From a virus (taxonomy: Duplodnaviria; Heunggongvirae; Uroviricota; Caudoviricetes), in IMG/VR virus record IMGVR_UViG_2850773344_000009: a stretch of DNA of 64,000 nucleotides. One strand, written 5' to 3'. Below, in pieces: positions 7,219-37,139 of this stretch (positions are counted from its first letter, which is position 1; every line of letters starts with the position of its first letter). Made by a program: the position numbers and the translations under genes. The notes below the pieces were generated by a model that was given only the letters and a program-made list of their open reading frames with translations, was not told the origin of the DNA and did not search any database.

Positions 7219-7294
7219 GACTTCCCTCTCCCCCAAATAAAAAGGCCTGCTATTACCAGCAGGCCTGTTACAAGCTCAGTGATGTAGATGGTCA

Positions 7295-8746
7295 TCAGAA
7301 TCCTCCTTTCTTCTTGGACTGCGGTTCCTCGCGTTCACGGCGGCGCATTTCAGCAGACTGTTGGTCTGTGTCATAAATAGCGCCATTTGCCTGAATGCAA
7401 TACACCGTGCCGGTATTGCCATGACGATTGAGACGAAGGATTAGTTCGGTTTCACCAGGAGGAACGCTGTCATCAAAAGCACCTTCCCGATGGATCCCAA
7501 CCCAATAATCGCAATCCTGTTCAATCTGCCCTGTATCTCGTGAGTCACTTGGTAATGGGCGTTTATTGGTTCGGCTTTCCAGTGCGCGGTTAAGCTGTGT
7601 CAGAAGCACAACAACGCAATCAAGCTCTTTGGCAAGGTTCTTCAGTCCTTTGGTGATCATGCCGTAAGCAAGGTCGTTGCGATCGGCCTTCTCAGCGGTC
7701 ATTAGTGTCAGGTAATCGACCAGAATCATGCCAACACATCCTTTTTCTCGCTTGATTCGACGGCTTTCGCTGACGATTTGAGCCAGAGATAATCCCGGCG
7801 TGTCGTCGATGTAAAGCAGGTCGATTTCACTCAAGCGATTGGCTGTTTCGATCGCCCTGTTGAAGTCACCATCGTAATCACCCTGATAGCCGTCATCAGC
7901 GTCATTTGTCGCCGGAAGGTAAAAAATATTCGGGTTAACACCAGACTTCTGCCCTACCAGTTTTTCCAGTATCTGGTCACCTGGCATTTCAAGGCTGAAC
8001 ATAAGAGCGGGCTTTTTCTCATGCACTGCGCAGTTGATTGCCATCTGGCTGTATAGCGTCGTTTTCCCCATCTTAGGGCGAGCGCCAATGACAAACAGAG
8101 AGCCTTTCACCAGACCTTTCGGTGACAGCATCCTGTCCAGCGATGGGATCCCTGTGCTCATTCCTCGTTGTTCACCTGACGGGTCAAATCGCTTCTCAAG
8201 GTCGCTAACCCAGTCTTCCATGACCTCACCAAATGAGCGAAGGCCGCGACGCGATCCGGTTTTTGCATGGTCTGTCAGTTGCGTGAAAATCGCCTGAATA
8301 GCTTCGTACTTCTGCGTTGCAGTCATTCCGTTGCGGGAATAGAGCAATTCCGTCGCTTCAGTCATGCGGTTGATGGCGTAGCGTTCCATTGCGGTTTCAC
8401 GAACCTGCATTGCATAGGCAACGATATTTGCTGCGCTTGGCGTGTTCTTTGCGATCTCAGCGATATAAGCAAAACCGCCAACAGAAGCCGTTAACGATTT
8501 ACGCTCCAGTTCATCGAAAAGCGTCAGGCCATCTACTGGCTTTTGCTCACGGTGCATTCTGGTTATTTCTTCGAAAATGATTTTGTGTGGTCGGCTGTAA
8601 AATGAATCAGGCTTCAGCATCGCCAGAACTTTCTGGACGCGCTCACTGCTGTCATCATCCAGAAGCAATCCACCAATCACCGCCTGCTCTGCCTCGATGC
8701 TATGGGGCGGCGCATAAAAATTATCGGTCATCGTGTTCACCCTCAC
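7295..8746 (-). CDS. Replicative DNA helicase (DnaB family; P22 gene 12-like)
   Basis: 483-aa ORF with DnaB-like N-terminal domain and RecA-like ATPase motifs (GARPKMGKT Walker A). Confidence 0.9.
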   Translation of the reverse strand: MRVNTMTDNFYAPPHSIEAEQAVIGGLLLDDDSSERVQKVLAMLKPDSFYSRPHKIIFEEITRMHREQKPVDGLTLFDELERKSLTASVGGFAYIAEIAKNTPSAANIVAYAMQVRETAMERYAINRMTEATELLYSRNGMTATQKYEAIQAIFTQLTDHAKTGSRRGLRSFGEVMEDWVSDLEKRFDPSGEQRGMSTGIPSLDRMLSPKGLVKGSLFVIGARPKMGKTTLYSQMAINCAVHEKKPALMFSLEMPGDQILEKLVGQKSGVNPNIFYLPATNDADDGYQGDYDGDFNRAIETANRLSEIDLLYIDDTPGLSLAQIVSESRRIKREKGCVGMILVDYLTLMTAEKADRNDLAYGMITKGLKNLAKELDCVVVLLTQLNRALESRTNKRPLPSDSRDTGQIEQDCDYWVGIHREGAFDDSVPPGETELILRLNRHGNTGTVYCIQANGAIYDTDQQSAEMRRREREEPQSKKKGGF

Positions 8747-9545
8747 GAACTTTCAGGTAGGTATTATCGTTAAGCAGGAAATCAAATCCCTTTTTGTGCC
8801 AGACAGTTCCGCGTTGATGGTTTGGACGCTCTTCGAACATCCATCGACAATTTTCGCCTACGTAGCTCAAATAATTTCTCCAGTCCTGCATCGTGAACCC
8901 ATGTCCGTCAAGCTGGCGGGTTATCACTCCGGCTTTGCGCCAGAACGTTCGGATCTGGTTTTTACGCTTGTCATTCAGTGCGCGGATTCTTGGCGCTTCA
9001 GGAAGGATTTCGTGGTAAGCATCGACAACATCCTGACAGCTGACGGAAGGTTTTTTCTTGTTAGACTTTTTGTCTGCTGTGGCACTCTCTAATACGTCAG
9101 TATTAGAGATATTATTTATATTATTGTTTATGGACAACCGTTGGACAACCGTTGGACAATTTTTTGCCTGAAAATCGTCATATTTAACGATTGTAAACAG
9201 GCTAAATTTCTTCCCCATCGAGCAAATATTAAGCATCCCTTTCGACTCAAAAGTCCGTAATAAGCTCCGAACTTTGTTGTCGGGGATGAATGTTTCTCTG
9301 ACCAGCGACGGGCGTCCAGTTATCATCTGACCGCGATCAACAGTTATCGGACCGATATCCGTATTGACGACAGTAGATTCGTGATTAGCCTTGAGGATTA
9401 AGTGAAGCCAAAGATGTACTGCCTGAGAGTCCTTATAGAGCCTGCTGTCCATAAACTGGCGGTGTATAGAGACATACCCCATACTGGATGCCTCCTGATG
9501 TTGTACAGGGTTATGCCTGTAATCAGCTAACTTAACGACGCCCAT
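8721..9545 (-). CDS. Replication initiator (lambda O / P22 gene 18 functional analogue) containing ori iterons
   Basis: 274-aa ORF immediately upstream of helicase gene; iterons and AT-rich tract inside the coding sequence. Confidence 0.65.
   Translation of the reverse strand: MGVVKLADYRHNPVQHQEASSMGYVSIHRQFMDSRLYKDSQAVHLWLHLILKANHESTVVNTDIGPITVDRGQMITGRPSLVRETFIPDNKVRSLLRTFESKGMLNICSMGKKFSLFTIVKYDDFQAKNCPTVVQRLSINNNINNISNTDVLESATADKKSNKKKPSVSCQDVVDAYHEILPEAPRIRALNDKRKNQIRTFWRKAGVITRQLDGHGFTMQDWRNYLSYVGENCRWMFEERPNHQRGTVWHKKGFDFLLNDNTYLKVREGEHDDR
9131..9160. repeat. Putative phage origin iterons: tggacaaccgt x2 plus tggacaat, flanked by AT-rich tract 9100..9130
   Basis: Direct tandem repeats read in sequence inside the O-like gene, as in lambda ori. 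Confidence 0.6.
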
Positions 9546-9727
9546 GTTTCACTCCTGCTTTGGCTAGTCTGTAAACACCAACAAGGCGCTCTGCGAACGC
9601 CCTGTTATTTGCTGCGGCTACCACTAATCCCTCAGGTGAATCAGGGTGTCGAATCTCTTCTTTTTCCTGGTATTTCTTACGACGTTTTGTCATAATTACT
9701 CCCGTGGATTGATCCAGTCTTTCTACA

Positions 9728-20915: not shown

Positions 20916-21005
20916 CCACAGCCTCATACTCGATGAGGCCTGTTCATTGCTCAATGATATCCAGACCTACCGCAATAATACCAATCCAATAAATGGAGAT
21001 TCCAG

Positions 21006-21353
21006 GTGGAAGAAGAAATCTTCACTCGTGAAGAGGCAGCGTCGTATCTGAAGGTAGACAAAGGCACTATCACGCAGTGGATACGAAGTGGACGACTTCA
21101 GGCCGCAAAGATAAATCCAGATAAACCTAAAAGCCCATATCGCATTTGCAAGTCAGACTGCATTGCGGCGCTTAAGTCTGTGAGACACAATAGCGCGGTG
21201 AATGCGGTTGATGTGCAGGAGGTTAAAGCATGTCAATCAAACTACGCGGTGGCACGTGGCACTGCGATTTCGTCGCGCCAGATGGATCAAGAGTTAGACG
21301 CTCTCTTGAAACATCGGACAAAAGGCAAGCGCAAGAACTTCACGATCGTCTGA
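21006..21353 (+). CDS. xis: Excisionase-like DNA-binding protein
   Basis: 115-aa ORF (GTG start) with HTH-like segment, immediately upstream of and overlapping int. Confidence 0.6.
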   Translation: MEEEIFTREEAASYLKVDKGTITQWIRSGRLQAAKINPDKPKSPYRICKSDCIAALKSVRHNSAVNAVDVQEVKACQSNYAVARGTAISSRQMDQELDALLKHRTKGKRKNFTIV

Positions 21354-22390
21354 AAGCAGAAGCGTGGAGAGTAAAAAATCTCGGGGAATCACCGAAAAAG
21401 CTATTCAAGGAAGCCTGCATACGGTGGCTGCGTGAGAAATCGGATAAGAAGTCCATTGATGATGACAAGAGCATTATATCGTTCTGGATGTTGCACTTCA
21501 GAGAAGCCATTCTCTCTGACATAACAACAGAAAAAATAATGGAGGCGGTAGACGGGATGGAAAACCGCCGCCATCGCCTGAACTGGGAGATGAGCCGGGA
21601 CAGGTGTTTGCGACTTGGCAATCCGGTGCCGGAGTATAAACCAAAGCTTGCAAGCAAAGGAACGAAGACGAGGCATCTGGCAATACTTCGCGCCATTCTC
21701 AATATGGCTGTTGAATGGGGATGGCTTGACAGGGCACCCAAAATATCAACACCACGCGTTAAGAATGGACGCATCAGATGGCTTACAGAGGAGGAATCGA
21801 AGCGCCTGTTTGCAGAAATTGCTCCTCACTTCTTCCCTGTGGTCATGTTTGCAATCACGACAGGCCTTCGCCGTTCCAACGTTACAGACCTTGAGTGGTC
21901 ACAGGTCGATCTGGATAAGAAAATGGCATGGATGCACCCTGATGAAACAAAAGCTGGCAATGCGATCGGAGTTCCTCTTAACGAAACCGCATGCCAGATA
22001 TTAAGAAAACAGCAGGGGCTCCATAAGAGATGGGTATTTGTCCACACCAAACCTGCCTACCGAAGCGACGGAACAAAAACAGCAGCGGTAAGGAAGATGA
22101 GAACCGACAGCAACAAGGCATGGAAGGGAGCGTTAAAGCGGGCAGGCATTAGCAACTTCCGCTTCCATGATCTGAGGCATACCTGGGCAAGCTGGCTGGT
22201 TCAGTCCGGTGTCTCTCTTCTTGCACTTAAAGAGATGGGAGGATGGGAAACTCTCGAAATGGTTCAAAGATACGCCCACCTTTCAGCCGGGCATCTCACC
22301 GAGCACGCAAGCAAAATCGATGCGATTATAAGTCGCAATGGCACAAATACGGCACAAGAGGAGAACGTGGTTTACTTAAATGCGAGGTAA
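21230..22390 (+). CDS. int: Tyrosine integrase (P22/SfV-like)
   Basis: 386-aa ORF with aggagg RBS; C-terminal R...HDLRHTWAS...Y motifs of tyrosine recombinases; stop 15 nt before tRNA-derived core. Confidence 0.9.
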   Translation: MSIKLRGGTWHCDFVAPDGSRVRRSLETSDKRQAQELHDRLKAEAWRVKNLGESPKKLFKEACIRWLREKSDKKSIDDDKSIISFWMLHFREAILSDITTEKIMEAVDGMENRRHRLNWEMSRDRCLRLGNPVPEYKPKLASKGTKTRHLAILRAILNMAVEWGWLDRAPKISTPRVKNGRIRWLTEEESKRLFAEIAPHFFPVVMFAITTGLRRSNVTDLEWSQVDLDKKMAWMHPDETKAGNAIGVPLNETACQILRKQQGLHKRWVFVHTKPAYRSDGTKTAAVRKMRTDSNKAWKGALKRAGISNFRFHDLRHTWASWLVQSGVSLLALKEMGGWETLEMVQRYAHLSAGHLTEHASKIDAIISRNGTNTAQEENVVYLNAR

Positions 22391-22404
22391 CTTATTGATT
22401 TAAA

Positions 22405-22450
22405 TGGTGCCGATAATAGGAGTCGAACCTACGACCTTCGCATTACGAAT
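22405..22450 (-). other. attP-like core: 3' terminal 46 nt of tRNA-Thr(CGU) (thrW type), not a complete tRNA
   Basis: Minus strand reads attcgtaatgcgaaggtcgtaggttcgactcctattatcggcacca (anticodon loop CGT through CCA); upstream tRNA half absent. Confidence 0.85.
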
Positions 22451-22651
22451 TATAAGAATCCGCTTGTAATTCAAAGGATTATCCCATCAACACTGCGCTC
22501 ACACGTCCCACCACATCAAAACATGTAAAGCCTTGCAAGCCATTGTGAGGCCTTATGTGTCTCAGTTTTGTCTCATCAGACATAGCAAGTATCGATCAAT
22601 TGAGACTTGGATGATAGACTTCATGCCTTTCAGAGCTCATTGATTAAATAA

Positions 22652-23014
22652 ATGTTAAAGTTATTTGTAAAGTACACATCTATAGGTGTGCTGAACACAC
22701 TTATACACTGGGTGGTTTTTGGTGTATGTATCTATGCCGCACATACCAGTCAGGCTCTGGCAAACTTCACAGGTTTCGTAGTGGCTGTGAGCTTTAGCTT
22801 CTTCGCGAATGCAAGATTCACATTCAAAGCATCGACTACAGCGATGCGCTACATGTTATACGTGGGATTTATGGGAATATTGAGTGTGATTGTTGGTTGG
22901 GCAGCTGATAAATGCTCACTTCCTCCAATAGTCACTCTTATCACCTTCTCCGCCATCAGTCTGGTGTGCGGTTTCGTCTATTCAAAGTTCATTGTCTTTA
23001 GGGATGCGAAATGA
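22652..23014 (+). CDS. gtrA: GtrA (bactoprenol-glucose flippase)
   Basis: 120-aa four-[25 protein letters not shown]..., first gene of gtr operon. Confidence 0.9.
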
Positions 23015-23934
23015 AAATATCTCTTGTCGTTCCTGTCTTCAATGAAGAAGAAGCGATACCTGTTTTCTATAAAACGGTACGTGAATTCCAAGAGTTGAAG
23101 CCATATGAAGTAGAAATTGTATTCATAAATGACGGAAGTAAAGATGCCACAGAGTCAATTATTAACGCGCTGGCTGTTTCAGACCCGCTAGTTGTTCCGC
23201 TGTCATTTACACGCAACTTTGGTAAAGAACCAGCCTTATTTGCAGGGTTAGACCATGCAAGCGGCGATGCTGTAATTCCTATTGATGTCGACCTGCAAGA
23301 CCCAATTGAGGTTATCCCTCATCTTATTGAAAAGTGGCAGGCAGGTGCTGACATGGTGCTTGCTAAACGTTCAGACCGCTCAACTGATGGACGACTGAAA
23401 CGTAAGACAGCTGAGTGGTTCTATAAATTACACAACAAAATAAGCACCCCAAAGATCGAGGAAAATGTCGGAGATTTTCGACTCATGTCTCGTGAGGTTG
23501 TGGAGAACATTAAACTGTTGCCTGAGCGCAATCTTTTCATGAAAGGCATACTGAGCTGGGTGGGTGGTCAGACGGATGTCGTTGAATATGTACGCGCAGA
23601 GCGTGTTGCTGGCATCTCAAAATTTAATGGCTGGAAATTATGGAATCTGGCACTGGAAGGTATCACAAGTTTTTCAACCTTTCCTCTTCGCGTATGGACT
23701 TATATAGGCTTGTTTGTTGCAAGCATTTCATTTTTATATGGTGCATGGATGATTATAGACACCCTTGTCTTTGGTAACCCAGTACGCGGGTATCCCTCCC
23801 TGCTTGTATCAATACTTTTCTTGGGTGGAGTGCAGCTGATCGGGATTGGTGTTCTCGGTGAATATATAGGCAGAATCTATATTGAAAGCAAACATCGTCC
23901 CAAATACATCATCAAAAATGAGAAACAAAAATGA
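23011..23934 (+). CDS. gtrB: GtrB (bactoprenol glucosyltransferase, GT2 family)
   Basis: 307-aa ORF with N-terminal GT2 domain (VVPVFNEEE..., DxD) and C-terminal TM helices. Confidence 0.9.
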
Positions 23935-25184
23935 AAAGCCTTAAAACATCATATGTAAAAAAACTATTTTTCTTAATTGCTGTATTTTTCATTGCGGTTA
24001 TTTTGATGTATTTGCGCCGTCCTGATATAATCAGAACACCGCAGTTTTGGGCAGAAGATGGTCATGTATGGTATGCTATGGCATACAATAATGGCATATT
24101 CACATCAATGATATTCCCTCAAAATGGATATTATCAAACCATATCAAAACTTATTGCCTCCATATCATTAAATTTTAATTTAATGTATGCCCCTTTAATT
24201 TTTAACATCTCCGCAATTATTGTTAGGGCATTGCTTGTGTCTTTCATACTCTCTGGAAGATTTAGTTACGTAAACATAACACCAAGAATATTTACTGCTT
24301 TGTTTATTATAATAATGCCGGAAGTATCAGAAGTGCACGCCAATGTTACTAATGATCATTGGTATTTATCACTATATTTACTTCTTGTTATGTTAGCTCC
24401 AAAGCCTACAAATAATTATCAAAAAGCACACGATTATATAGCGATAATCATATGTGGACTAAGTGGTCCATTTATAGTATTCATGGCTCCAATGGTAGGG
24501 ATAAATATACTTATACAAAAACGCTTATCTACAAAAAAAATAACCACTCACGAATACGTTTTCATTGCTATTTGTTTTATTCAATTTATTTCTATTATCA
24601 TGACATCCTCTGAGACCAGAGTTGATATGGCTCTTGGAGCAAATTTCGCAACACTTTGCAAAATATTAACAACAAAGGTTTTTCTGGGTTTATGGGCTAA
24701 TGGTGACTTTTTATCACCTTTATGGAATCATGATTCAATTTGCATTGCAATTACAATGATTTGTCTTTCCATCACTATTTTTACATTTATTGTTTCCAAT
24801 TACCCCATGCGCTCGGCAATAGTTTTCGCAATACTAACATTAACGTTTTCACTAGCAAAACCAATGCTTTCGTCTACAAGTGAGCAATGGCCATTATTAA
24901 TTCATGGCGGAGGAAGATATTCTGTCATACCAACAATTATATGGTACTCTGTATTGGTTTACTTCTTAAACTATATTTCCCACTTGCACTTTAAATTCCT
25001 ACCATGGATGTTATATACAACATCGTTAATCTCATGTTTATATTTTTTCAATCTTACCCCACTCCCAGATTACGGGTGGAAAGAGCAAGTTAAAAAATTT
25101 GAAAGTTTAGCACCAGGAGAATCGTATTCTTTCAAGTTCAACCCTGCAGGATGGACGATGACATTAATAAAAAAACAGCCTTAA
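23931..25184 (+). CDS. Type-specific O-antigen glucosyltransferase Gtr(type) (polytopic membrane protein; serotype identity not resolved)
   Basis: 417-aa multi-TM ORF in strongly AT-rich DNA directly after gtrB. Confidence 0.8.
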
Positions 25185-25305: not shown

Positions 25306-25713
25306 TTATTTATTTTCCTCTGGTTTTTTCGGCCACTCTATATTTTTTATATCAACACGCATCAATAGCACCCGATATTTTTTCCATGCCAGTAACAGTT
25401 TCGTTTCATCATCTGTTGCCATATCTAAATCAACCGCATCCTGAAGCGGCGCTATTACATTCGTTGCCTCTGCTATCAGTGCAGATTTCTTTTCATTATT
25501 TATTAAGGCTAATTGTTCTGGTGTTGGAGAAGGACGGTCAACAATGACAGGGTGACCATTCTCACCACAGGTAATCATTTTTGTTACACTCTGCGAATTA
25601 ATCAGTGTTTTCCACTCTGATTCCGAGATTTCCACTGCATCATCAGGAATATTGGTGCCGTGAAATTCAGTCGAATAAAATCCGTTTGTCGATGCAGAAT
25701 AAAAATATGACAT
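25306..25713 (-). CDS. Tail fiber assembly protein (Tfa)
   Basis: C-terminal [15 protein letters not shown]...IEWP motif typical of Tfa chaperones; ATG at 25713. Confidence 0.75.
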
Positions 25714-25717
25714 TTCG

Positions 25718-26368
25718 TTAATATCCCATTGCAATGTAATACGCATCAGCAGATGAACCATATCCTGAACCGGGCGACACTGTAATATCAAATCCAGTGT
25801 TATGGACATTTGTCGCCGATACAGTCGGCTGCCCTGACGCGCCAGTAACTTTTAATGTAACTACGACAGCAATGACTCTTGAGAACGTCATCGGAAACTT
25901 CATCCCGTATGTTGAAGATACATTCGGGGCACCATTCAACTGACCACACTGTAAAATTAATCCAGACGGAAATTTTTGCGCAGCAGCCGTTACGGTATTA
26001 ATTGACGCGAACAGGCTCATATCAGGTATCTGATTCGCCCCTGTACCTACATTCCTTTTAGCTGCTTCTCCCAAACCAAGGTTTTCGAGAGCCGTTTTCA
26101 CCGTGCCATCCGATTTGATATCGCCAAACGGATTCTTGCGGCTTAACAGCAGCGCGCGAAGTGCGGTAAGCAACTGATCGTGCCGCCCCTTCTCCAGGCT
26201 GGCACCGGATGCCTCCACCACGCTGCAAAGCTCCTCCTGCAACATGTCAAAGTAGTCATCATCCAGATCGGTGGCAGGCGTGCCAGTCTGGGGGTTACCA
26301 CGGGTAAAACCGTTCTTACCCGCGCCGAACTTATCCTTCTGCGCGGTTTTCGTGTCTATACGATGCAT
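25718..26368 (-). CDS. Tail fiber protein
   Basis: 216-aa ORF immediately upstream of tfa, downstream of baseplate genes. Confidence 0.55.
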
Positions 26369-26371
26369 GGA

Positions 26372-26956
26372 TTACTCCGGATATTTAAAAATCACATAGG
26401 TATGCGACGGGCAGAGTTTGTTAAGCACACATTCGACAACGGTGTCGCCCCAGATACGCAGCGCGGAATCACAGGGATCGCCACATGTCATCCAGGTGGT
26501 GTTTGTGGCGGCTGGCATGTTGACCTGCCAGTAATACCGCCATTCCGGCACATTCACCGCGTCAGTACAGGCCGATGAGCAGGTGAACGTGCTTTTGTCG
26601 TATCGCGTGATGGTAGCGTCTGGTCTGCCCAGGGCAGCAAGCTGTGCAAGATAAAAATTCTCATTGATGCCGCCCGCCAGGTTAACCTTCGCATCCAGCC
26701 GTTGCTGACGCTGGCGAAGGGTCTGTGTCCCTGCGGGAATACATTCATCCGGCAGACCGCACAGACGCTCCCAGCGGTTTATCAGTTCAGTGGTGGTGCG
26801 CGGATCCAGCTCCCGCATCAGGGCATCCGCACGCTGATGAACGCGGGTTAATGACGGTGCCGCACCGGCAATCGACGGATCGCTGGCTGACCACGCCGGA
26901 CCGGGGGGCAACAGTGCCGACAACAGACGGATGTAATCATCGTTTGTCACGTCCAT
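26372..26956 (-). CDS. Mu gp48-like baseplate/tail protein
   Basis: 194-aa ORF, position after baseplate J homolog. Confidence 0.55.
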
Positions 26957-28005
26957 GAAATCGTCCCCAGAACCGCCAGTTCATTTTTCGCAATGGAGAT
27001 ATTGTCTGCCGGTGCAAGCAACTGATGGCTGTATTCCCCGTTCGCACCGGAAATCGCCTCACTGATACGCGATACCTTCAGTTTTCCCTGCGGATAACCA
27101 TCACGCAGCAGGAACGAACGCAACTCGGCGGTGATGGCAGCACGTATTTCGGGTGTGTCCGGCGTCACGCGAATATGAAAATCCACCATATGCGCCACCG
27201 GCCTGAACACATACAAATCAGAGCCTGCCACCGGGGCCAGTGGCTCAATGTGTTGTCTTGCCGCCGTTTCCGTTGATTCTTCCGGAATGGGATTAATCAG
27301 GTCACTGCTGGCAATCATCACACCGACAGTTCCCGTTCCCATCCAGTGACGGTATGTCCATGCGCGGGTAATGCCGGGCACTTCTTTAGCCCAGACGACA
27401 TAGTCCCCGTCAGCCCCGCCCTGAGGCGTCCAGTAATACCGCTCAATGACGCGGGCGCGCCACGTTTCCAGCTCTTCAGTATCAAATCCGCCTGTAAGGG
27501 TGTCAGCCACACCGGAAGACGGCAGACCATTCACCGGCGTGACCAGGATTAATGCCGTACCGTCGTCAGCGTTACCGACCGCACCTGCACTTGAGCAGGC
27601 GATCGGCACGCGCAGGACACCACCGGTGCTGGTTGCATCGTCAGTTGTCGTGTACTGCACCAGGTCATCGCGCTGAATAACACTCCCGGCGGTCACCTTC
27701 AGGCCATCGCTGACACCTTCCCAGCGCATATACCCGCTGGCAGCCGTGGCCCCCTTGCGCGGACACCGTTTCATCGCAGCATGTCGCGCCAGCCAGGACT
27801 CATCGCACAGGTCAGGCAGCATGTTCATTGCCAGATAATCGATGTAACCGTAAACCGTATGCAGCGCCGCCGCATACACCTTTGCCCGCACGTCTTCATC
27901 CATGCGCCGGAGAGTGTCGCTGACGTCCAGCCTGGCGAATAAATCGTTACGGAGCATACTGATATTTTCTGCCAGCGTCGGGCGCTGAAATTCACTGTCC
28001 GCCAT
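26947..28005 (-). CDS. Baseplate J-like protein (Mu gp47-like)
   Basis: 352-aa ORF in conserved Mu-like baseplate gene order. Confidence 0.7.
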
Positions 28006-28420
28006 GCGTTATCGCACTCCACAGATCATCAAAAGAAATCATTACCGGTCCGTCACGACGCCAGAGAGTGATACTGTTACCCAGTTCATTAATCCCGGTG
28101 CGGCGGATATCCAGATCAATACGGGACACCACGCCGTCATCAATCATCCATTGCAGGCATTCGCGGATATACCCCCTTACCGTCTGCACCAGCTGATTGG
28201 TCAGTTTGCTGCGCTGAAGCAGCCACAGTCGGGAGCCGTAACGGTCATTCTGTACCGCAGGCCAGGTATCCCCCCACCATCCCATCGGGACATCGGCGTT
28301 GTCATCAGGCTCCGCCCGCCGCCAGGTAAACAGGGAAATCACCACGGCGCGGGTCAGCGGATCCAGCTGTGCGCTGGCGCAGGTGCGTTTACCGTTCACC
28401 GTCAGCCACAGTTCCATCAT
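27992..28420 (-). CDS. Mu gp46-like baseplate protein
   Basis: 142-aa ORF, synteny. Confidence 0.55.
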   Translation of the reverse strand: MMELWLTVNGKRTCASAQLDPLTRAVVISLFTWRRAEPDDNADVPMGWWGDTWPAVQNDRYGSRLWLLQRSKLTNQLVQTVRGYIRECLQWMIDDGVVSRIDLDIRRTGINELGNSITLWRRDGPVMISFDDLWSAITHGGQ

Positions 28421-28965
28421 GCCTCCATCGCTTTATCAGGTTTGTCGGTGTTACTGCCCTGACCGTTCTCTCTGTGACGATGCCCGTTATAGGCAAGCCG
28501 CATCGCTGACATGGTGGTACCGCCGGAGTCGCACAGGTCTTTCACCTGTCCGGTCACTTCCAGGTCCATTTCAAAACGTGCTCTGGGCGCATTGCGAAAC
28601 GTGATCGTTTTACCTGCACCGTCCACCACGATCCCCTCCCGGGTCAGCGTCACAGACTGCCCCCGATCGTCATAGACAGCCACCTCACCCGTCTGCAGCC
28701 CTTTCAGGCGGTAGCGCCGGTCCGACACCGTAACAACCACCGCATGAGAACGGTCGCCATCCGGAAACAACACCACCGCTTCCGCACCGCTGTTTGCCCT
28801 TGCGGTAAAACCGTAGGGTTCAAGATGTTCAATCCCGGCTTTGGGTTCACCGGCAATCAGGGACACATCCACGGTCTGACATTTCGTGGCGGCACTGATG
28901 CTTTTCACCACTGCCCGCCCAATCAGGCCGAGGAGTTGTCGCTGCATGGCTTCAATCGTCCTCAT
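28417..28965 (-). CDS. Baseplate assembly protein V / spike (Mu gp45-like)
   Basis: 182-aa ORF, synteny and size. Confidence 0.6.
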   Translation of the reverse strand: MRTIEAMQRQLLGLIGRAVVKSISAATKCQTVDVSLIAGEPKAGIEHLEPYGFTARANSGAEAVVLFPDGDRSHAVVVTVSDRRYRLKGLQTGEVAVYDDRGQSVTLTREGIVVDGAGKTITFRNAPRARFEMDLEVTGQVKDLCDSGGTTMSAMRLAYNGHRHRENGQGSNTDKPDKAMEA

Positions 28966-30044
28966 CAGAACGGGTCCTCCTGTACTCTGGCTTTTTTCTT
29001 TTTCCGCGCGCCGGGGGCTTCGGGTTCAGGCAGATAAGCATCAGGCGGGCCGACACGGATTTCCGTCAGGGTGCCGTTCTGGTCCTGAGTAAACGTGACT
29101 TCCGAAACAAGCAGTTCGGTATTGTCGAAACCACAGACCGGATCAAAGACAATCACCCGCTGGTTGGGCTGCCACAGCGTACCGTTACCCTGTCGCCAGC
29201 CCTGCACCACATAGGTGGTTTCATCCGTCCGCGCCGCCCGTTGCCGGGCTTCAAAGTCAGCACGCGCAATACAGCCTGCCCCCGTAGCCTGCCCTGTCTG
29301 CCTGATATACATCGGACGGTAACGGTCAATAAATGCGTCCTCTGTGCGGGCCCGCAGCGCGGTGGTGGTGGCCTCACCGAAATCATCGTCGTTTCCGGCA
29401 CGCTGCCCCGCCACCTGGTAAACAGAAAATCGCTCCCGGATACTCTTCTCCGTATCGCAGGAAAGGATGTTTTCCCCGAGTACCAGCGCAGTATGTGCCC
29501 GCGTTGAGCCAATACCGCCAATCACCAGCCTGCCGTGCGGGTCGTCGTAAGCCAGTGCCTGCTGCTGACCGAGTATTTTGTTGATTACCTCAATCACCGT
29601 TTCACCGTGATCAGGCTGAACATCAGGAATAACACCCGACGGCGCACCGCTGTTCACCACCTCAATGCCGAAAGGCGCAGCAAGCGCCTGCGCAATCTGT
29701 ACCAGCGATCGTCCGTTAAACTGTGTCGGTTCGGCTGCACAGTCAATCAGGTCAGCGGTCAGACTGCGTCCGGCAATACCGGTGCTGACCGAACGGGCAT
29801 CGTAACGAACGGGCGTCGCCTCCACCCAGCCGGTGATCACCAGCTCATCACCAATCAGCACCTCCACTTTTGAACCGTTTTTAATGCGCGGCTGAAGCGT
29901 GGTAATACCCTCATCTCCCGGCCACTGGCGGGTGATCTCCACACTGAAATCCCGCGCCAGCCGTTCAATACCGACACCGATGCGCACCGATGTCCAGCCA
30001 TTCCACTCCCGGCCATTTACCCGTAGCGTGACATTGTCGTTCAT
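28965..30044 (-). CDS. Baseplate hub protein (Mu P-like)
   Basis: 359-aa ORF, synteny. Confidence 0.6.
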   Translation of the reverse strand: MNDNVTLRVNGREWNGWTSVRIGVGIERLARDFSVEITRQWPGDEGITTLQPRIKNGSKVEVLIGDELVITGWVEATPVRYDARSVSTGIAGRSLTADLIDCAAEPTQFNGRSLVQIAQALAAPFGIEVVNSGAPSGVIPDVQPDHGETVIEVINKILGQQQALAYDDPHGRLVIGGIGSTRAHTALVLGENILSCDTEKSIRERFSVYQVAGQRAGNDDDFGEATTTALRARTEDAFIDRYRPMYIRQTGQATGAGCIARADFEARQRAARTDETTYVVQGWRQGNGTLWQPNQRVIVFDPVCGFDNTELLVSEVTFTQDQNGTLTEIRVGPPDAYLPEPEAPGARKKKKARVQEDPF

Positions 30045-31411
30045 TGCACTGGCACCTTCAGAGGGATCACCGGCACAAAGCCGGGATGCGTAATGGCATT
30101 ACGCCGGATAATGTCCGCGTCACGCGCCGCGTTATCAAACCAGGTCGCCGCCAGCACCAGCGCGGGTAAAACCTCATCCGGTGTGCGCTGAATGATCCGT
30201 GCAGACTGTTCAAGGCGCGTGTTGATATCCGCATTCAGATCTGCTTTCACCCGGCGCAGCGCCAGAAACAGCGCATCGCTGGTTGTACGGGACAACTCCT
30301 TATCAATTGCCGTATTCAGTGTGTCGCGAATGTCAGTCAGTTCTTCCCACGTCGGCAGGTCAACCGTGTTTTTCACCGCCGGTGCATTGTTCAGTGCCGG
30401 ATGCGTGACGGAAGGCCAGCCAGTGCTCTGCGCGGGTGTTGTTGCCTGCCCCACTGCGGCATTCTGCATCACCGCGGAAGTTGTTGGCGCAGGCAATCGG
30501 GTGACGGCATACGCCGCTTCGCTGATTGCGGTCGTACGAAGGGTGCTGGCAACCATGTTACGCTGCTGCGTCGCCGTGGCGGTGGTTTTACTGTCCGTTT
30601 TCCAGACGCCGCGCGGTTGCAGATCGCTGCCGAGGCTGACACCGGAAAGCGTTTTGATCATGGTGACCAGGTCGCTGGCGTTACCATAAAGGCGTTTCCC
30701 GGTACGCCACATTTTCTGCACCTGCTCAACGAAATTTTTGCCTGACGATGGCGGCGGCAGAAGTACCGAGATATCCCCCTGCAACAGCCTGGCGGCATCC
30801 GATACGGCAGAATCCACCACTTTCATCGCATCAGAAACATACCCAAGCATTGTGCTGGCATTACCGACGACGTCGTTCTGCACAAAATCTGCCACGCCAT
30901 CGATACTGAAACCACTGAAGCTATCACTGATGCAGTCATCCAGTGCAGAACAGGATGACATCAGCGTCTGCGCCGTCGCCGCACCTGAAGTGGGGTAAGA
31001 GAGTTCTCCCGCTTCGACAAACTTCAGGTCAAAGCGGACAATACGCCCTTCACTCTTCGATGTGCTGACCCGAACTTCCCCGTCAACACAGACTTTCAGC
31101 TCACCATAAGTCGGATGGACAAGCGTGCCAGGACCGGGTTTATTCAGCGCGTCAATCAGGCGATCGCGCTGGTCAAAGCAGTCATCTCCCACCACATAAG
31201 CTGTGATGGACGGGCGAAAAGTGATTTTCCCCAGGTCTTCGGTATAGGGTTTGTCGCGGTTCGGGTATTCGTGCGTTTCCACACGGCGACCGGTTCCCGC
31301 ACTTTCTTCTTCAACCTTAAACGGCACACCGCGAAATGACGCGTCCTGAAGTCTGTCTTTCCACGTCATATAAACTCCGTACATAAAAAATCCCACCGGA
31401 GTGGGACTCAT
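30041..31411 (-). CDS. DNA circulation protein (Mu N-like); start possibly at internal Met
   Basis: 456-aa ORF directly downstream of tape measure gene. Confidence 0.6.
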   Translation of the reverse strand: MSPTPVGFFMYGVYMTWKDRLQDASFRGVPFKVEEESAGTGRRVETHEYPNRDKPYTEDLGKITFRPSITAYVVGDDCFDQRDRLIDALNKPGPGTLVHPTYGELKVCVDGEVRVSTSKSEGRIVRFDLKFVEAGELSYPTSGAATAQTLMSSCSALDDCISDSFSGFSIDGVADFVQNDVVGNASTMLGYVSDAMKVVDSAVSDAARLLQGDISVLLPPPSSGKNFVEQVQKMWRTGKRLYGNASDLVTMIKTLSGVSLGSDLQPRGVWKTDSKTTATATQQRNMVASTLRTTAISEAAYAVTRLPAPTTSAVMQNAAVGQATTPAQSTGWPSVTHPALNNAPAVKNTVDLPTWEELTDIRDTLNTAIDKELSRTTSDALFLALRRVKADLNADINTRLEQSARIIQRTPDEVLPALVLAATWFDNAARDADIIRRNAITHPGFVPVIPLKVPVQ

Positions 31412-31429
31412 TAACAGATTAATTTTTCA

Positions 31430-33265
31430 TTACCTGCCAAAGCGCGTATAGCCAACATCATGGCTGACATCAAAACCGCTGGATCGCGTTTCCATAACCC
31501 GCATACCCGGAGGCGAATTCACAAAAGAGACCTTGATCTCACCATCAACTTTTGGCGCAGAAGCTTTGTTAATCATGAAGGGATTCGGGCCTGTGGCATC
31601 GGAGGCGTTGTTTGACTGAGCCGGATCTACCGCCTGATAAGGTGTGTATCCCCGTGCCGGTATTCCCGTCCCATAAGCATCATAAGCACCCGCGCCCCAC
31701 TGCGCCGAGTTAATGGCATCGACCGTGTCACCGGAACTATCGGTAAACCATTCAATAATCGGCTTCAGCTTATCCCACATATCCTGAAACCACTTAACAA
31801 CCGGTCCCCAGTTATTGATCACCATCCCCAGCGGCGACCAGGCAAAAACCTTCTTCAGAAGTTCCCAGCCAGCCTCAAAATAAGGACTAATGGTTTCCCA
31901 GAGTTTCTTAAAATAAGGTCCGACAACATCCCAGTTAGTGATAATTAATCCCGCAGCCAGGGCAATCGCCGTCGCAATCATGCCAATCGGCGTCATCGAC
32001 ATGATCCTGCTGACGATACTGATGGCACTGCCCACGCCCATCAATCCCAGTTTCAGAATCGCAAGACCGGCAGCAAGCCCGACGACACCGCGAATAACCC
32101 GGGGATTTTCATCCGCAAACTTCGTGAATTTTTCCCCTAACTCCCCCAGCCATTGCGTGATATTTTTGGCGTCACCAGAAAATGCGCCGCCAATAGCCGC
32201 AAGGCCGTTAGTTGCGGTCCCCGTCATTGCCTCCCACAGGTTGGACAGCGTACCAAGCTGGGCCTGAACACGTTTATTCAGACTGGCCTGTTTATTCATC
32301 TTCTGCTGGATCTGATCGTAACCATCCTTTCCTTTATCGATCAGAGCATTTACCACCTGAAGGGTTTCGGCATCATCACCAAATATTGCCTTAAGTACAC
32401 CTGTTCGCTTAACGTCGGTCAGTTTTCGCAGCTTTGCCAGTTGTTTAAACATGTTATCAAGACCGCCAAAACTCCCTTTGCCGTCAGTAAAATCGAGCTG
32501 TACCCCGAGTTTCTGGCGGGCCATAACTTTATTGACGTCCCTGATTTTCTTAACGCTTAATCCGGACTGGATAACTTTTCGCAGGGCATTACCTGCCGAC
32601 TCCCCGTTCATCCCCATCTGATCCATCATGACGCTGATGGGGGCAAGGCTCTGTGCAGCCTGAAGACCGTCCTTGTTCACCATCTTCAGAACAGAACTGG
32701 TTTTAGTGAAGAAGGACAACATGTTGGTATCGTCAACGCCCAGATAAAACGCCTTCTGGATAGTGTCGAACAGCCCCATCATGTCTTCTGACGCCGTTCC
32801 GGTAGCATCCTGCATCTTTGCAGCAAACTCAGCAGCCGCTTCCGGTGTTTTTTTCAGTTGTACCGCAAGATAAGCTGTCGCTTTACCCACACCGCCAAGA
32901 ATGTTTTCTGCCTGGATCCCCTGACGCACCAGCATCTGCATCATGTTCTGGAAATCAGCCGTTGTACCGGGTAGCTGGTTACCCAGGCCAATAGCCAGTT
33001 TATTGATGTCCTGAAAGCTCTTTCCAACCTCGCCGTTCGCATCCATCATGGCGACTTTCAGCCCGGTGGCGGCGTTTTCCTGATCGGCATAAGATTTCAG
33101 GGAAAGCGTCAGACCCGCAGCCAGTCCGCCACCAAGCGCCAGCCCACCCTGTGACGCTTCTTCCGCCTGGCGTTTAAATCCCCGGATTTTCTTTTGCATT
33201 TTCGACAGCGCGGGAGAAAGCCTGTCGACACCGGTGATCAACGCCTTAAGCTCAAATTCAGCCAT
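31430..33265 (-). CDS. Tail tape measure protein
   Basis: 611-aa ORF, Gly/Ala-rich with hydrophobic segments, downstream of chaperone with frameshift. Confidence 0.8.
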   Translation of the reverse strand: MAEFELKALITGVDRLSPALSKMQKKIRGFKRQAEEASQGGLALGGGLAAGLTLSLKSYADQENAATGLKVAMMDANGEVGKSFQDINKLAIGLGNQLPGTTADFQNMMQMLVRQGIQAENILGGVGKATAYLAVQLKKTPEAAAEFAAKMQDATGTASEDMMGLFDTIQKAFYLGVDDTNMLSFFTKTSSVLKMVNKDGLQAAQSLAPISVMMDQMGMNGESAGNALRKVIQSGLSVKKIRDVNKVMARQKLGVQLDFTDGKGSFGGLDNMFKQLAKLRKLTDVKRTGVLKAIFGDDAETLQVVNALIDKGKDGYDQIQQKMNKQASLNKRVQAQLGTLSNLWEAMTGTATNGLAAIGGAFSGDAKNITQWLGELGEKFTKFADENPRVIRGVVGLAAGLAILKLGLMGVGSAISIVSRIMSMTPIGMIATAIALAAGLIITNWDVVGPYFKKLWETISPYFEAGWELLKKVFAWSPLGMVINNWGPVVKWFQDMWDKLKPIIEWFTDSSGDTVDAINSAQWGAGAYDAYGTGIPARGYTPYQAVDPAQSNNASDATGPNPFMINKASAPKVDGEIKVSFVNSPPGMRVMETRSSGFDVSHDVGYTRFGR

Positions 33266-33406
33266 GTGTGCGTTTCTCCTGCTCTATCCTGTTTGCCTGA
33301 CTGACCAGTAAGGGAATTTCACTGATCGGCATATTCAGCAATTCGAAAGGATTAATGCGCCAGTAGCTGGCGCAGTCAAAGAAGCGATCAGTGAGGTATT
33401 CAGCCG

Positions 33407-33676
33407 TCAGGCCTGGAGGAAAAAACCAGCCACAAGCCACGCCGCTGCATTCAGGTCTGCCGGAGACATCTGGTCGACAGAGCTTTGCGGCACTTTCGCC
33501 AGCCGCACAATGTATTTCGACACCACATGCGCCAGAAGTCTGACTGACTCATCCTGATTCATCTGGTAGGGATACCCCAGCTCGCGGACATCCTTCCCGG
33601 TGGGCTCATCAAACTCCAGTACGGAGAGTGTCTCGCCATGAGCAGTAATCGGTTTCTTTAACTCAAGCTCTTTCAT
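33407..33676 (-). CDS. Tail assembly chaperone (G-like); -1 frameshift extension continues to 33258
   Basis: 89-aa ORF ending in slippery ttttttc; overlapping -1 frame ORF 33258..33440. Confidence 0.65.
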   Translation of the reverse strand: MKELELKKPITAHGETLSVLEFDEPTGKDVRELGYPYQMNQDESVRLLAHVVSKYIVRLAKVPQSSVDQMSPADLNAAAWLVAGFFLQA

Positions 33677-34032
33677 TACTGGTAATCCCCTTCTTCACCG
33701 TGGAACTCAAGATCAACCGTGCCTTCTTCGGCATTATGGTTCGCTTCGCCGTGCAGCCAGGCAGACGACAGTACATAGACCTGACCGTTCGCCAACTCGG
33801 CAGTGATTGTCATCTCATCAGACGAGGTGATTTTGTTCACCGGAAAATTCTTCGGCACCTTGAAGGTCCCTTTGACATAAGGCGCACGGTGAGTTTCCTT
33901 GCGGTCCACTGAACCGTCCAGGCCGATGATGTCATCATTGACCGTCCTGTTCATGGGCACCTCAATGCCGCCGGTCAGCGATAGCTGCTGACCGTCAATT
34001 TTGAAATAACAGGTTCCCCCGATACGGGCCAT
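33676..34032 (-). CDS. Tail tube protein
   Basis: 118-aa ORF between sheath and chaperone. Confidence 0.7.
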   Translation of the reverse strand: MARIGGTCYFKIDGQQLSLTGGIEVPMNRTVNDDIIGLDGSVDRKETHRAPYVKGTFKVPKNFPVNKITSSDEMTITAELANGQVYVLSSAWLHGEANHNAEEGTVDLEFHGEEGDYQ

Positions 34033-35528
34033 TATGCAGACTCCTCTGAATACTGAAGACGGAACTGATTAACCACGGCAAAGACACGCAGCTGGTTAAC
34101 ATAGTCAGGCGGGAACAGCGTGTTAAGGCGGTTCGGATCGCTGGCATCACGCTCCACAACCAGGTACTGCTTAAACAGTTCGTAGTTTTCCACGATCCCC
34201 GCACGCTCAAGCTGACGGTAGGTTGCCAGCAGTTCCCCTTTGATCACCGCCGGGGTGACAATCGCCTGACCGGGACCAAAGCGGGTACCGTCACTGGCAA
34301 GCTTGTGACGCCCGTACTTACTGGTAATGACGGATTTCAGTTTGCGCAGTACATACGCGCTGGTATGCAGCGTCTCACTGTCGAGGTAACTGTTATCCGC
34401 AACCCCGTAAGCATTTTTCCTGTACGTGGTGACATCACGCTGAATGCGCAGCACCCCGCTTTCGACATACGCCGTTGCCACGCCATGAGACAGCAGGGTC
34501 TGCTGCTCGGTCATCGTGAACCGTTTCCCCTTCGGCGCAGGCAGCATACCCACCAGCTCACCGGTCTGCGTGGGACGTGCCGGATCGTTGCGGATAAACA
34601 CCGCTGCGCGGGCGGTACGGCTTGCCGCCAGCTCGTCGGCAGGCGTCTGGGTCTCTTTTTCGTACCCCGCCAGGGTGATGTGCTGCTGGTTAAACTGGTC
34701 ACCTGCGTTCACCAGTTCTGACAGTGTGCCGGTCTTTGCCGTATACACATGACCATACAGCTGACGCGCATAGCTCCAGCGACCGCTGGTATCGTTCATC
34801 TCGGTCACCAGCGTGTTAACGGAGGCCGTGTCGTTGAACGGCAGACCGATATAATCAAACGGCTCATCCGCCATTGCAGCCACCGCGCCGGTGAGAACCG
34901 GAGCGCCCGTTCCGGCGGTCCCCGTCGCCACGGCAATCTGTACGCCCGCTGGCAGCACTTCGCCCCCACCGAAGCCGTAGTAATTGAGGCTGACAGGAAT
35001 TTCATTCCCGCAAAGCCCCTTATGACGCGCGGTCAGCGTGACAACACCAGCCGAAGATGAAGCTGTAAACGGCAGAGTCGGAACGGCATTGATGGCATCT
35101 TTGATACTGCTGGCAATCGTCGTGACGTTATCGCCGTTGGTCACCGGAGCCTGCACGCGGGTACGTCCCACATAGACATTCACCGTGCCGCTTTCGGTTG
35201 CTTCCCCGGTCACCGTCAGCGTAACCGTTGCCGCCGCGCCTGTGGCTTCCGGAACGGCAATCACATACAGCTCACCAAACGGGTCGGTCTGGCGATAAGC
35301 CTCGACCATACGCGCCAGCTGACTTCCCGCACCACAAATCTGGCGTGCATAGTCTGCCGACGGCATCAGCACCAGACTGTTGGCAACAATCTCTGCACCG
35401 TTATTGGCATGACCAATCAGCAGCGATGCTCCGCTGTCCTGTGCAGTATTCGCAGCCTGGTTATCCATTTCCGCATAAAACAGCGGAACCAGCGTATTCG
35501 ACGGAATGGTGTTAAAGCTTATCGTCAT
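34032..35528 (-). CDS. Contractile tail sheath protein
   Basis: 498-aa ORF, size and synteny of Mu L-type sheath. Confidence 0.8.
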   Translation of the reverse strand: MTISFNTIPSNTLVPLFYAEMDNQAANTAQDSGASLLIGHANNGAEIVANSLVLMPSADYARQICGAGSQLARMVEAYRQTDPFGELYVIAVPEATGAAATVTLTVTGEATESGTVNVYVGRTRVQAPVTNGDNVTTIASSIKDAINAVPTLPFTASSSAGVVTLTARHKGLCGNEIPVSLNYYGFGGGEVLPAGVQIAVATGTAGTGAPVLTGAVAAMADEPFDYIGLPFNDTASVNTLVTEMNDTSGRWSYARQLYGHVYTAKTGTLSELVNAGDQFNQQHITLAGYEKETQTPADELAASRTARAAVFIRNDPARPTQTGELVGMLPAPKGKRFTMTEQQTLLSHGVATAYVESGVLRIQRDVTTYRKNAYGVADNSYLDSETLHTSAYVLRKLKSVITSKYGRHKLASDGTRFGPGQAIVTPAVIKGELLATYRQLERAGIVENYELFKQYLVVERDASDPNRLNTLFPPDYVNQLRVFAVVNQFRLQYSEESA

Positions 35529-35682
35529 CGGTGTTCACCTTTTTATTCACGCGCCGGATATCACCCGCTGCTTCACGGCGCAGCCAGTAGTTGTTCTCAT
35601 CAACATTTCGCCCTTCGGCGGGCAAAAGGTCGCCGCGGGCAGGGTCAGGCACTGACCGCCCTTTAACAGGTTTGACAAACAT
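35512..35682 (-). CDS. Small conserved tail-region protein
   Basis: 56-aa ORF MFVKPVKGRSVPDPARGDLLPAEGRNVDENNYWLRREAAGD..., hand-translated. Confidence 0.4.
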   Translation of the reverse strand: MFVKPVKGRSVPDPARGDLLPAEGRNVDENNYWLRREAAGDIRRVNKKVNTDDDKL

Positions 35683-35690
35683 GAGGATCC

Positions 35691-36251
35691 TCAGGAAGGA
35701 AGGGTTATTTCGGTGTGATGTTCTATATCGCCGTCAGGCCCGTTACCGGGCTCGAGATAATCAACATCAATCGCCAGCGTTTGCAGTTCATCCAGACTGT
35801 TCAGATCATCCTGCTGGCGGGTATCGTCTTCAGTCAGCTCGCTGATGACCGAAAAATCGAACTGATAAATCAGCTCATGACGATTCAGATCCAGCAGCGT
35901 GCCGCCGTCATAGGTAATCGGGTTACCGCACGCCTCCGGGTTCCAGCCCAGCAGAGCCTTAAAGAGCATCTGCCGGACATCGTCCACCACATCATACGAG
36001 GCAAACTGACCGCGCTCATCACGCCCGTTACTCAGTATGACAACCACGGAGAAACCCTCTTTCAGCTCCTGCCAGTAGTCGGTCTGGCTTTTGTTTTCTC
36101 CCGGAGAATCATCACCCGGTACAACATATGCCGCCGGGAGTTTCAGCTTTCCGACCTCCGGCAGATTTTTGAACTGGGCCGCGCCTGCAACCCGGTTTTC
36201 AAAATACGGACAGCGGGCACGCAGTGCAGCAATAACAGGCGTCAGTTTCAT
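35691..36251 (-). CDS. Putative tail completion/neck protein
   Basis: 186-aa ORF between head-tail joining genes and sheath. Confidence 0.4.
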   Translation of the reverse strand: MKLTPVIAALRARCPYFENRVAGAAQFKNLPEVGKLKLPAAYVVPGDDSPGENKSQTDYWQELKEGFSVVVILSNGRDERGQFASYDVVDDVRQMLFKALLGWNPEACGNPITYDGGTLLDLNRHELIYQFDFSVISELTEDDTRQQDDLNSLDELQTLAIDVDYLEPGNGPDGDIEHHTEITLPS

Positions 36252-36754: not shown

Positions 36755-37139
36755 TGCTGCCTCCGTGACTCTGCGTAAATTCGCCCAGCTCCGTACACTC
36801 CAGCAGCAGAAAGCGCCGCGCCCCGTTCAGATCGCGCTGACGTTTCACCCGGTACACACTGTCACCGCAGACCACCTCATAATCAGCGGTGATCCCCCTG
36901 CGGTAACGAATGGTGATGTAATGGGTGATGGCGTCCCCGGTCTGCGCGGTTTCCTGCCAGGTGGTGGCACTGGTCTGGATAACCTTCGCCCATGTCCGGA
37001 ACGTAACCGGATATTGAGGCTCCACGCCAAAGTTATCCGCGGGCATATCCACCCGCTGGCGGATCAGGACGCGTTTATTCAGTTCGCCGGGGTCCGGCAG
37101 AATGTAGGTTGCGCTGGTCTGCGCCTGACGAATTTTCAT
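36729..37139 (-). CDS. Head-tail adaptor protein
   Basis: 136-aa ORF, synteny. Confidence 0.45.
   Translation of the reverse strand: MKIRQAQTSATYILPDPGELNKRVLIRQRVDMPADNFGVEPQYPVTFRTWAKVIQTSATTWQETAQTGDAITHYITIRYRRGITADYEVVCGDSVYRVKRQRDLNGARRFLLLECTELGEFTQSHGGSNGDFLFAR

Follow-up and report, generated by a model that had tools for sequence, protein, structure and literature searches.

Prophages of the thrW family ordinarily carry their integrase gene and their gtr operon at opposite ends, as stated in PMC3306764 and as we see in the normal SfV-like lysogen of E. coli YZ22MPE54. In the 64,000-nt stretch of DNA analysed here (the window), an intact integrase gene and a gtr operon instead stand side by side across a short piece of a tRNA-Thr gene, which raises the question of how a junction with the look of a phage attachment site came to lie within a chromosome. 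A first-pass annotation, which rightly took opposite ends to be the normal arrangement, had read the junction as the unrecombined attP of a single element in phage-like permutation, residing either at the internal junction of a tandem double lysogen or in a genome captured by recombination between insertion sequences (IS).

By its sequence identity, the window is the region of the SHI-O serotype-conversion island of Shigella flexneri, as found in the serotype 5 lineage (8401/M90T). Across the stretches compared, it is 99.94–100% identical to the serotype 5 chromosomes CP000266.1 (Sf8401), CM001474.1 (M90T), UGYR01 and JANXIZ01, the value for CP000266.1 being 99.94–99.96%. In S. flexneri 5b strain 8401, Nie et al. 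(2006, BMC Genomics 7:173, PMC1550401) reported that SHI-O carries gtrA, gtrB and gtrV together with some 15 kb of SfV DNA; the passages of that genome paper that we consulted contain no treatment of an att junction, a second int or an IS600 inversion.

The window is a patchwork of phage modules and IS elements (Table 1). Between 801 and 22450, the minus strand encodes KilA-N, Rz, holin, Q, nin, replication, cII/cro/cI and N functions, and the plus strand encodes recombination genes, xis and int. Positions 22387–37252, which span gtrABV and the tail fibre, baseplate and tail genes, are colinear with SfV 20655–5787 at 97.6% identity, and positions 41076–41414 correspond to SfV terL 2211–1873; the breakpoints on the SfV map, 2211 and 5787–5793, agree with those tabulated for SfI (PMC3636060). 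The locus holds two sets of virion genes, one of an SfV-like myovirus and one of a P22-like podovirus, and it contains IS600, IS629, IS911, IS4, IS1 and IS2. Fragments of no fewer than three phages are present: an SfX-type int with its lambdoid early region, an SfV-like late region with gtrV, and a P22-like late region. The single element of the first-pass annotation therefore does not hold as a unit, given these pieces and an older int remnant at thrW described below.

Table 1. Features of the window, with positions counted from its first base.
Feature	Position	Strand	Basis or remark
IS600 copy (a), IS600 positions 465–1264	1..800	+	full copy extends 464 bp further left, beyond base 1
Lambdoid region (early, replication, nin, Q and lysis genes, KilA-N), running on into xis-int_2	801..21005	-	HK542-like
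IS4-family element inside the lambdoid early region	10138–11484		
IS1 inside the lambdoid early region	14763–15535		
xis, excisionase, 115 aa, HTH_17	21006..21353	+	ORF list; Pfam PF12728 on the identical CP000266.1 gene
int_2, intact SfX/HK542-type tyrosine integrase, 386 aa, P arm	21230..22390	+	ORF list, homology
46-nt att core, 3' end of tRNA-Thr(CGU) thrW, anticodon loop to CCA	22405..22450	-	thrW alignment, published core
P' arm and gtr upstream region, SfV/SfI/SfII type	22451..22651	+	alignment; att sequences of Sun et al. 2011
gtrA	22652..23014	+	ORF list, Pfam
gtrB	23011..23934	+	ORF list, Pfam
gtrV, gtr(type), 417 aa	23931..25184	+	ORF list, Pfam
SfV/SfI-like myovirus late module, tail fibre assembly to 3' piece of terL	25306..41414	-	IS600 at its end
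Portal-protease-capsid stretch	37253–41075		divergent from SfV
IS600 copy (b), inverted relative to (a)	41415–42251		cut at IS600 position 428
6-bp IS600 piece between IS600 copy (b) and IS629	within 41415..43647		
IS629	42258–43562		CGT on both sides
Terminal IS600 piece, IS600 positions 1180–1264	43563–43647		
P22-like podovirus late genes, gp16 back to truncated terL	43635..56306	-	terL cut by IS911
IS911	56307–57555		
Portion of a third phage with a lysis cassette	about 58–62.7 kb		
IS2	from 62760		

At the junction itself, the int stop codon at 22390 is followed after a gap of 14 nt by a core that begins at 22405 and reads TGGTGCCGATAATAGGAGTCGAACCTACGACCTTCGCATTACGAAT. Its reverse complement is the 46-nt attP/thrW core published for SfI, SfII, SfV, SfX and P22, ATTCGTAATGCGAAGGTCGTAGGTTCGACTCCTATTATCGGCACCA (PMC3636060). 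The 46-mer occurs once in the window and has no match in 100 shuffles. Alignment with a genuine thrW, a check that the first-pass annotation had proposed, gives 46 nt identical to the 3' end of thrW, after which the two diverge, thrW continuing into its own 5' half and the window into the arm upstream of gtr. A search with ARAGORN gives no tRNA gene in the window, and Rfam returns only a sub-threshold match to the T-arm and acceptor of a tRNA 3' end; the window holds no complete tRNA-Thr cloverleaf, and the intact thrW lies outside it. Each coordinate given in the annotation is thus correct (the int stop, the thrW 3' fragment on the minus strand and the start of gtrA, with no 5' half of the tRNA), and homology bears out its statement that phage genes form both flanks of the core. 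No host DNA of the kind that marks attL or attR, whether the thrW 5' half with proA or yagP/paoD/yaiC, stands beside the internal core.

The annotation had held that its reading would fall if host DNA abutted the core or if the int–gtrA linkage were an artefact. The flanks are phage DNA, and five independent records (CP000266.1, JANXIZ010000001.1, UGYR01000001.1, CP026799.1 and a JGI metagenome contig) carry an identical int–core–gtrA junction; it is therefore no product of assembly. The locus is IS-rich, but we found nothing in favour of a linkage created by repeats: long reads across 21000–25500 are already part of the public assemblies, the five records derive from different technologies and include the finished Sf8401 genome, CP026799.1 combines the same junction with a different left context, and the core is unique in the window. 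We give misassembly practically no weight.

The two arms of the site have different affinities. On the P side, xis overlaps the start of int_2 and is 98% identical to the xis of SfX and HK542, and int_2 is 98.6–98.7% identical to the integrase genes of the same two phages, its last 419 bp being identical to SfX U82084. In contrast, int_2 shares only 69% DNA identity with the int of SfV and of SfV-like E. coli prophages. Homology to SfX/HK542 covers window positions 1922–22450 and stops exactly at 22450. The native SfX attP matches the window over the end of int and the core only (79 nt), and its own P' arm is of the HK542 type (95.9% identical to HK542). The exact Int_2 protein was found in 824 collection blocks; in the long contigs from other strains that we read, its gene lies beside thrW–proA, and homology to the window again stops at 22450. 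One carrier of the exact protein, E. coli CS18F, has a decayed array with a vat island and without gtr genes, and so has no bearing on whether one phage carries both arms.

On the P' side, the arm differs from the one native to SfX or HK542. Here homology to SfV, SfI and SfII begins at 22387–22405, the match between the window and the native SfI attP is limited to the core and P' arm, and the same gtr arm occurs in E. coli at attR, adjoining yagP'/paoD. The genes that follow, gtrA-gtrB-gtrV (22652..25184), form a type V O-antigen glucosylation operon that is 98.4% identical to gtrABV of SfV. Among SfI, SfII and SfV, gtrA and gtrB are 98–99% conserved; those of the window are slightly nearer to SfI/SfII (99.2%) than to SfV (98.4%), a sign of mosaicism. 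A promoter scan found no consensus sigma-70 promoter in the spacer upstream of gtrA.

On the homology of its arms, then, the junction is classed as an attP in architecture (P-O-P') but a hybrid in composition, P(SfX-type int) - thrW core - P'(SfV/SfI-type gtr). Like a native attP, it has a 46-bp core identical to the 3' end of thrW, directly flanked by the genes for a tyrosine integrase and an excisionase (P side) and by the gtr operon (P' side). Unlike one, it joins arms that are not a pair known from any characterised phage, and it is chromosomal, 23 kb from proA–thrW in an IS-interrupted array, rather than part of a free or excised genome. An SfX-type int contiguous with this gtr arm was found in none of 50,697 phage records and none of 5,426 complete E. 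coli genomes. Because the P and P' arms are those of different phages, we read the site as a product of att x att recombination and not as a native attP. The phage-like permutation seen by the first-pass annotation thus stands in that the site is configured as an attP and is no current integration junction; the word 'unrecombined' does not.

The switch of affinity is confined to a short interval, as the SfX-side and SfV-side homologies overlap by 64 bp (22387–22450), the core plus a short conserved flank. Such a junction could also have arisen by RecA-dependent homologous recombination between prophages or phages, without integrase, either in this identical region of about 60 bp or in the conserved gtrAB; the core and the adjacent 14 nt are identical in all phages compared, and the conservation of gtrA/gtrB and the mosaic gtrAB of the window would suit such exchange. 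The overlap, however, is the known crossover region of Int, the architecture of the product is identical to that of an Int-made junction, and RecA would find a far better substrate in the kilobases of homology outside it than in 60 bp. We therefore regard the RecA route as very improbable.

The first-pass annotation had advised locating the real thrW/proA locus in the genome. This locus is not at some distant place but just outside the window, about 0.84 kb to the left, in the order gpt-frsA-crl-phoE-IS1-proB-proA-thrW, core, int_1', IS600 copy (a), the left end of this IS600 adjoining the int_1' remnant and thrW. The core of thrW falls at about -882..-837 in window coordinates on the plus strand (roughly 0.84–0.88 kb left of base 1). 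This is the second copy of the 46-nt core for which the annotation had advised a search; proA–thrW lies on one side of it and int_1' on the other. The two cores are 23.2 kb apart and inverted in orientation. The remnant int_1' is what is left of a second SfX-type int, 374 bp from its 3' end, reading toward thrW and cut by IS600, and it differs from int_2 at 5 of 419 positions, which makes it a separate allele and not a duplicate of int_2. In the serotype 1a strain 0228, the same int_1'/IS600 junction with the same SNPs is fused to core–gtrA as an attR-type junction. The remnant is therefore older, and later phages integrated beside it; the junction of strain 0228 further implies that integration beside a resident int remnant recurs at thrW. 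At attR sites in E. coli thrW, an int remnant of about 70 bp lies outside the core.

Relative to this genuine site, the internal junction has several traits of the boundary between tandem prophages: one arm per phage is joined at the core, a separate att site with its own int lies at the genuine thrW, and two phage remnants flank the core (SfX-like early genes on one side; SfV-like late genes on the other, with P22-like late genes further right). It departs from such a boundary in that the internal core is not co-oriented with thrW and the prophages do not both lie between the tRNA and a distal att site.

In CP026799.1, thrW–int_1'/IS600 is joined straight to window position 21222, showing an IS600-adjacent deletion of 801–21221 and an IS600 that is actively remodelling the locus. 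The first-pass annotation was also correct in placing IS600 junctions at 800 and 41415. The IS600 ends have 3-bp flanks (CCC, TTT, TAT and ACT) that do not pair and are not target-site duplications, so they neither favour nor rule out any order of events; IS629 alone shows a clean target duplication, CGT. In a gp16 look-up for an 'empty' ancestral site in other serotypes, the exact gp16 protein was present only in the serotype 5 lineage.

We consider it likely that the junction was made by integrase-mediated att recombination of two thrW phages, one SfX-like and one SfV-like, with heterologous tandem lysogeny as the simplest route and IS600 rearrangement coming later. One donor, an SfX-like lambdoid/P22-like phage, would have supplied xis, int_2 and the early region; the other, an SfV-like myovirus, would have supplied gtrABV and the tail genes. 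One of them would have entered the att site of a prophage resident at thrW, so that the resulting internal junction, gtrA(phage 1) - core - int(phage 2), would take on the look of an attP. IS600 and other IS elements would later have removed some parts of the array and turned others round, with at least one inversion through IS600, and deletions, after the junction had formed. In the present state, the junction lies 23 kb from thrW in inverted orientation, excision of the array as a unit is impossible and gtrABV has become a fixed part of the chromosome. In this scheme, the anatomy, the mismatch of the arms, the second int and core at thrW, the two sets of virion genes and the IS junctions are observed, and we infer the order of integration and the order of the IS events.

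Two donors are supported by the two kinds of virion gene in the locus, together with the company that the early region keeps in other genomes: individual E. coli prophages combine the replication/nin/Q type of the window with its P22-like late set, at 96–99% identity. This pairing suggests that the donors were an SfX-like podovirus and an SfV-like myovirus. The sequence downstream of KilA-N, tried as another way to pair the early region with a late module, is uninformative owing to mosaicism, as in E. coli it runs into HK97-type packaging genes.

A rival reading dispenses with the second donor and takes the site as the true attP of one mosaic phage, with SfV-like late genes, gtrV, an SfX-type int and a lambdoid early region, that came to rest in phage-like permutation, either because the excised circle was captured through the resident IS600 or because an IS600 inversion had set attL and attR in opposite orientation, so that Int/Xis 'excision' inverted the DNA and restored an attB-like thrW and an attP. 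The 40.6-kb block 801–41414 is of phage size, has IS600 at both ends and is colinear with a circularly permuted genome lacking about 2.5–3 kb at cos/terS; thrW–core–int_1'/IS600 is configured like an unoccupied site, with the same remnant in strain 0228; int_2 and xis are intact; and mosaicism is on record for Sf phages, SfI among them (PMC3636060). The two IS600 copies that flank the block lie in inverted orientation, however, whereas Campbell-type capture through IS homology would leave direct repeats, and for this reason the IS-mediated capture proposed in the first-pass annotation, although possible, is the less supported of its two suggestions. The flanks of the block (downstream of KilA and inside terL) are adjacent in no phage genome and call for extra deletions, this int and this gtr arm occur together in no sequenced phage or E. 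coli prophage searched, and in the eight contexts read the early-region type was found with P22-like or HK97-like late genes and never with SfV-like ones. Even in such a phage, the mismatched arms would imply an earlier inter-phage att recombination. A single mosaic phage thus seems to us unlikely, albeit with a chance worth keeping in view.

Returning to att recombination between two phages, the locus is no pristine tandem: the internal core is inverted and thrW–core–int_1'/IS600 resembles an unoccupied site. This reading accordingly requires one or more IS600 inversions and probably one more att x att or IS event. In the sequence examined, we saw neither an SfV-type int nor gtrX, so each of the two postulated phages is incomplete. 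A simple tandem model followed by a single inversion between IS600 copies (a) and (b) was dropped, since int_1'/IS600 is shared with the serotype 1a strain 0228; int_1' is thus left over from an earlier time and does not represent the integrase of the SfV-like phage, and more steps than a single inversion are needed. Two histories are conceivable. The junction may be the original internal junction of the tandem, or a subsequent attL x attR reaction, at sites turned round by IS600, may have re-created it, which would also explain the empty-looking thrW. In the form in which the attP-like site and the 'empty-looking' thrW–core–int_1' are the two products of Int/Xis attL x attR excision after an IS600 inversion, with the 23-kb inversion trapping the hybrid attP, the second history strikes us as rather doubtful. 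If it were true, the 23 kb that separate the inverted cores could still change orientation, since int_2 and xis are intact.

The hybrid site today probably has no roles other than those of an upstream region for gtrABV and a possible substrate of the intact Int and Xis. Its history illustrates how serotype-conversion genes can become fixed in Shigella: successive phages accumulate at thrW, their att sites recombine to hybrids, and IS600 deletions and inversions split int/xis and att sites from their partners, so that gtrABV can no longer leave. The junction also offers a marker with which the past of the serotype 5 lineage (M90T, 8401) can be retraced. It reveals no new mechanism and will be instructive but unsurprising to a specialist: a junction of this kind has already been made and sequenced in the laboratory, the locus is published as SHI-O, and serotype 1a and E. 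coli have similar junctions of an int remnant, the core and gtrA. What appears to be new is a natural SfX/SfV-type hybrid with intact int/xis, inverted and 23 kb from an empty-looking thrW, which we did not find spelled out in the parts of the literature searched.

Among known systems, the closest is the tandem lysogen S. flexneri 036_1d, in which integration of SfI, a serotype-converting phage of the myovirus type, into the attL of a resident SfX was shown experimentally (Sun et al. 2011, BMC Microbiol 11:269, PMC3306764). Its SfI/SfX junction (Additional file 1F of that paper) aligns end to end with window 22376–22663, at 98.3% identity over 292 nt, and has the same parts: the end of an SfX-type int, the 46-bp thrW core, an SfI/SfV-type P' arm and gtrA. 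The tandem-lysogen origin put forward in the first-pass annotation fits. The junction in the window is a natural counterpart of the laboratory SfI/SfX tandem lysogen, from which it differs in carrying gtrV in place of gtrI and in being natural, old and inverted relative to thrW, with both prophages trimmed by IS600 and other IS elements. The native attP of the SfX/HK542 type resembles the window in int and xis (98.6–100%) and has the same 46-bp core, but continues into its own HK542-type P' arm of about 190 bp before the gtrX upstream region. The native attP of SfV, SfI and SfII (and of P22), conversely, shares the core, the P' arm and the order int-attP-gtrA-gtrB-gtr(type), but its integrase belongs to the other allele family, at 69% DNA identity to int_2. 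The attR junctions at thrW in strain 0228 (serotype 1a) and in E. coli likewise bring the 3' end of an int together with the core and with a gtr arm, because a phage integrated there beside an older int remnant. In those junctions, the int is a remnant of 70 bp to 420 bp at what looks like a functional attR of one prophage, whereas in the window int and xis are complete and are accompanied by a whole early region.

Adjacency of an integrase gene to the gtr genes also occurs outside thrW. In one E. coli contig (L004 7412-11254, yfdC side), the exact GtrV protein is encoded directly 3′ of a different integrase, a 385-aa protein with an Arm-DNA-bind_3 domain, and the pair adjoins fadL-mlaA-yfdC, which we take to be the argW/CPS-53 site. 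This adjacency sits in an integrated prophage at an attachment site other than thrW, and int-gtr contiguity alone is therefore no proof of phage-like permutation. The first-pass annotation had deduced such a permutation from the contiguous int and gtr genes in the window.

In E. coli lysogens carrying gtr phages at thrW, the attR core is separated from the yagP′ pseudogene by a roughly 70-bp remnant of the 3′ end of an SfX-type int. The remnant, aligned together with the core, shows 91% identity across 115 bp with a 1-bp deletion, and is a fossil from a previous occupant of the thrW site. At the locus of the window itself, the 3′ 419 bp of int plus core (the 46-nt thrW 3′ end) is present in inverted copies that are 98.8% identical and 23 kb apart. 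These repeats could support RecA- or Int-mediated inversion of the segment containing IS600 and the whole early region; the orientation of this segment is identical in all five assemblies seen.

Coordinates of the features discussed
Feature	Location	Remarks
attR at thrW with int remnant, E. coli	L022 6001-6114; L021 3001-3114	
Inverted repeat pair, int 3′ end and core	about -836 to -464 (left of window); window 22032-22450	
IS4-family transposase gene	window 10138-11484	448 aa; between cro and cII
IS1 copy	window 14763-15535	within leftward early operon of lambdoid region
IS911	window 56307-57555	cuts P22-like terL at 56306
Third lambdoid phage, partial	window about 58000-62715	DUF6971 protein, holin region, lysozyme, Rz

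The prophage bearing int_2, the intact SfX/HK542-type integrase, is defective, because it carries the IS4-family and IS1 insertions and ends at an IS600 boundary past KilA-N. The sole ORF at the endolysin position of its lysis cassette (window 2561-2887) encodes 108 aa with no match in Pfam, as against a 158-aa gene in related prophages; it probably represents a lysin gene that has been truncated or frameshifted.

Window 41415-43647 is a composite IS scar. An inverted IS600, cut off at its position 428, abuts 6 bp of IS600 (positions 1177-1182), followed by an IS629 with CGT on either side and then by IS600 positions 1180-1264, which adjoin the P22-like gp16. The head-to-head 428/1177 IS600 junction has no simple transposition explanation. 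Farther right, S. flexneri CP026765.1 has terL cut at the identical point, with IS911 in reverse orientation relative to the window. IS2 comes after the third-phage segment, and the T6SS genes and dnaQ-rnhA past the right end of the window indicate that a large segment is inverted compared with E. coli K-12.

Within the SfV-like module, the portal-protease-capsid stretch (window 37253-41075) has no SfV match at megablast level. Its breakpoints (SfV 2211 and 5787) match the ones listed in a published table comparing phage SfI with SfV, and the myovirus module is accordingly SfI/e14-like over this stretch.
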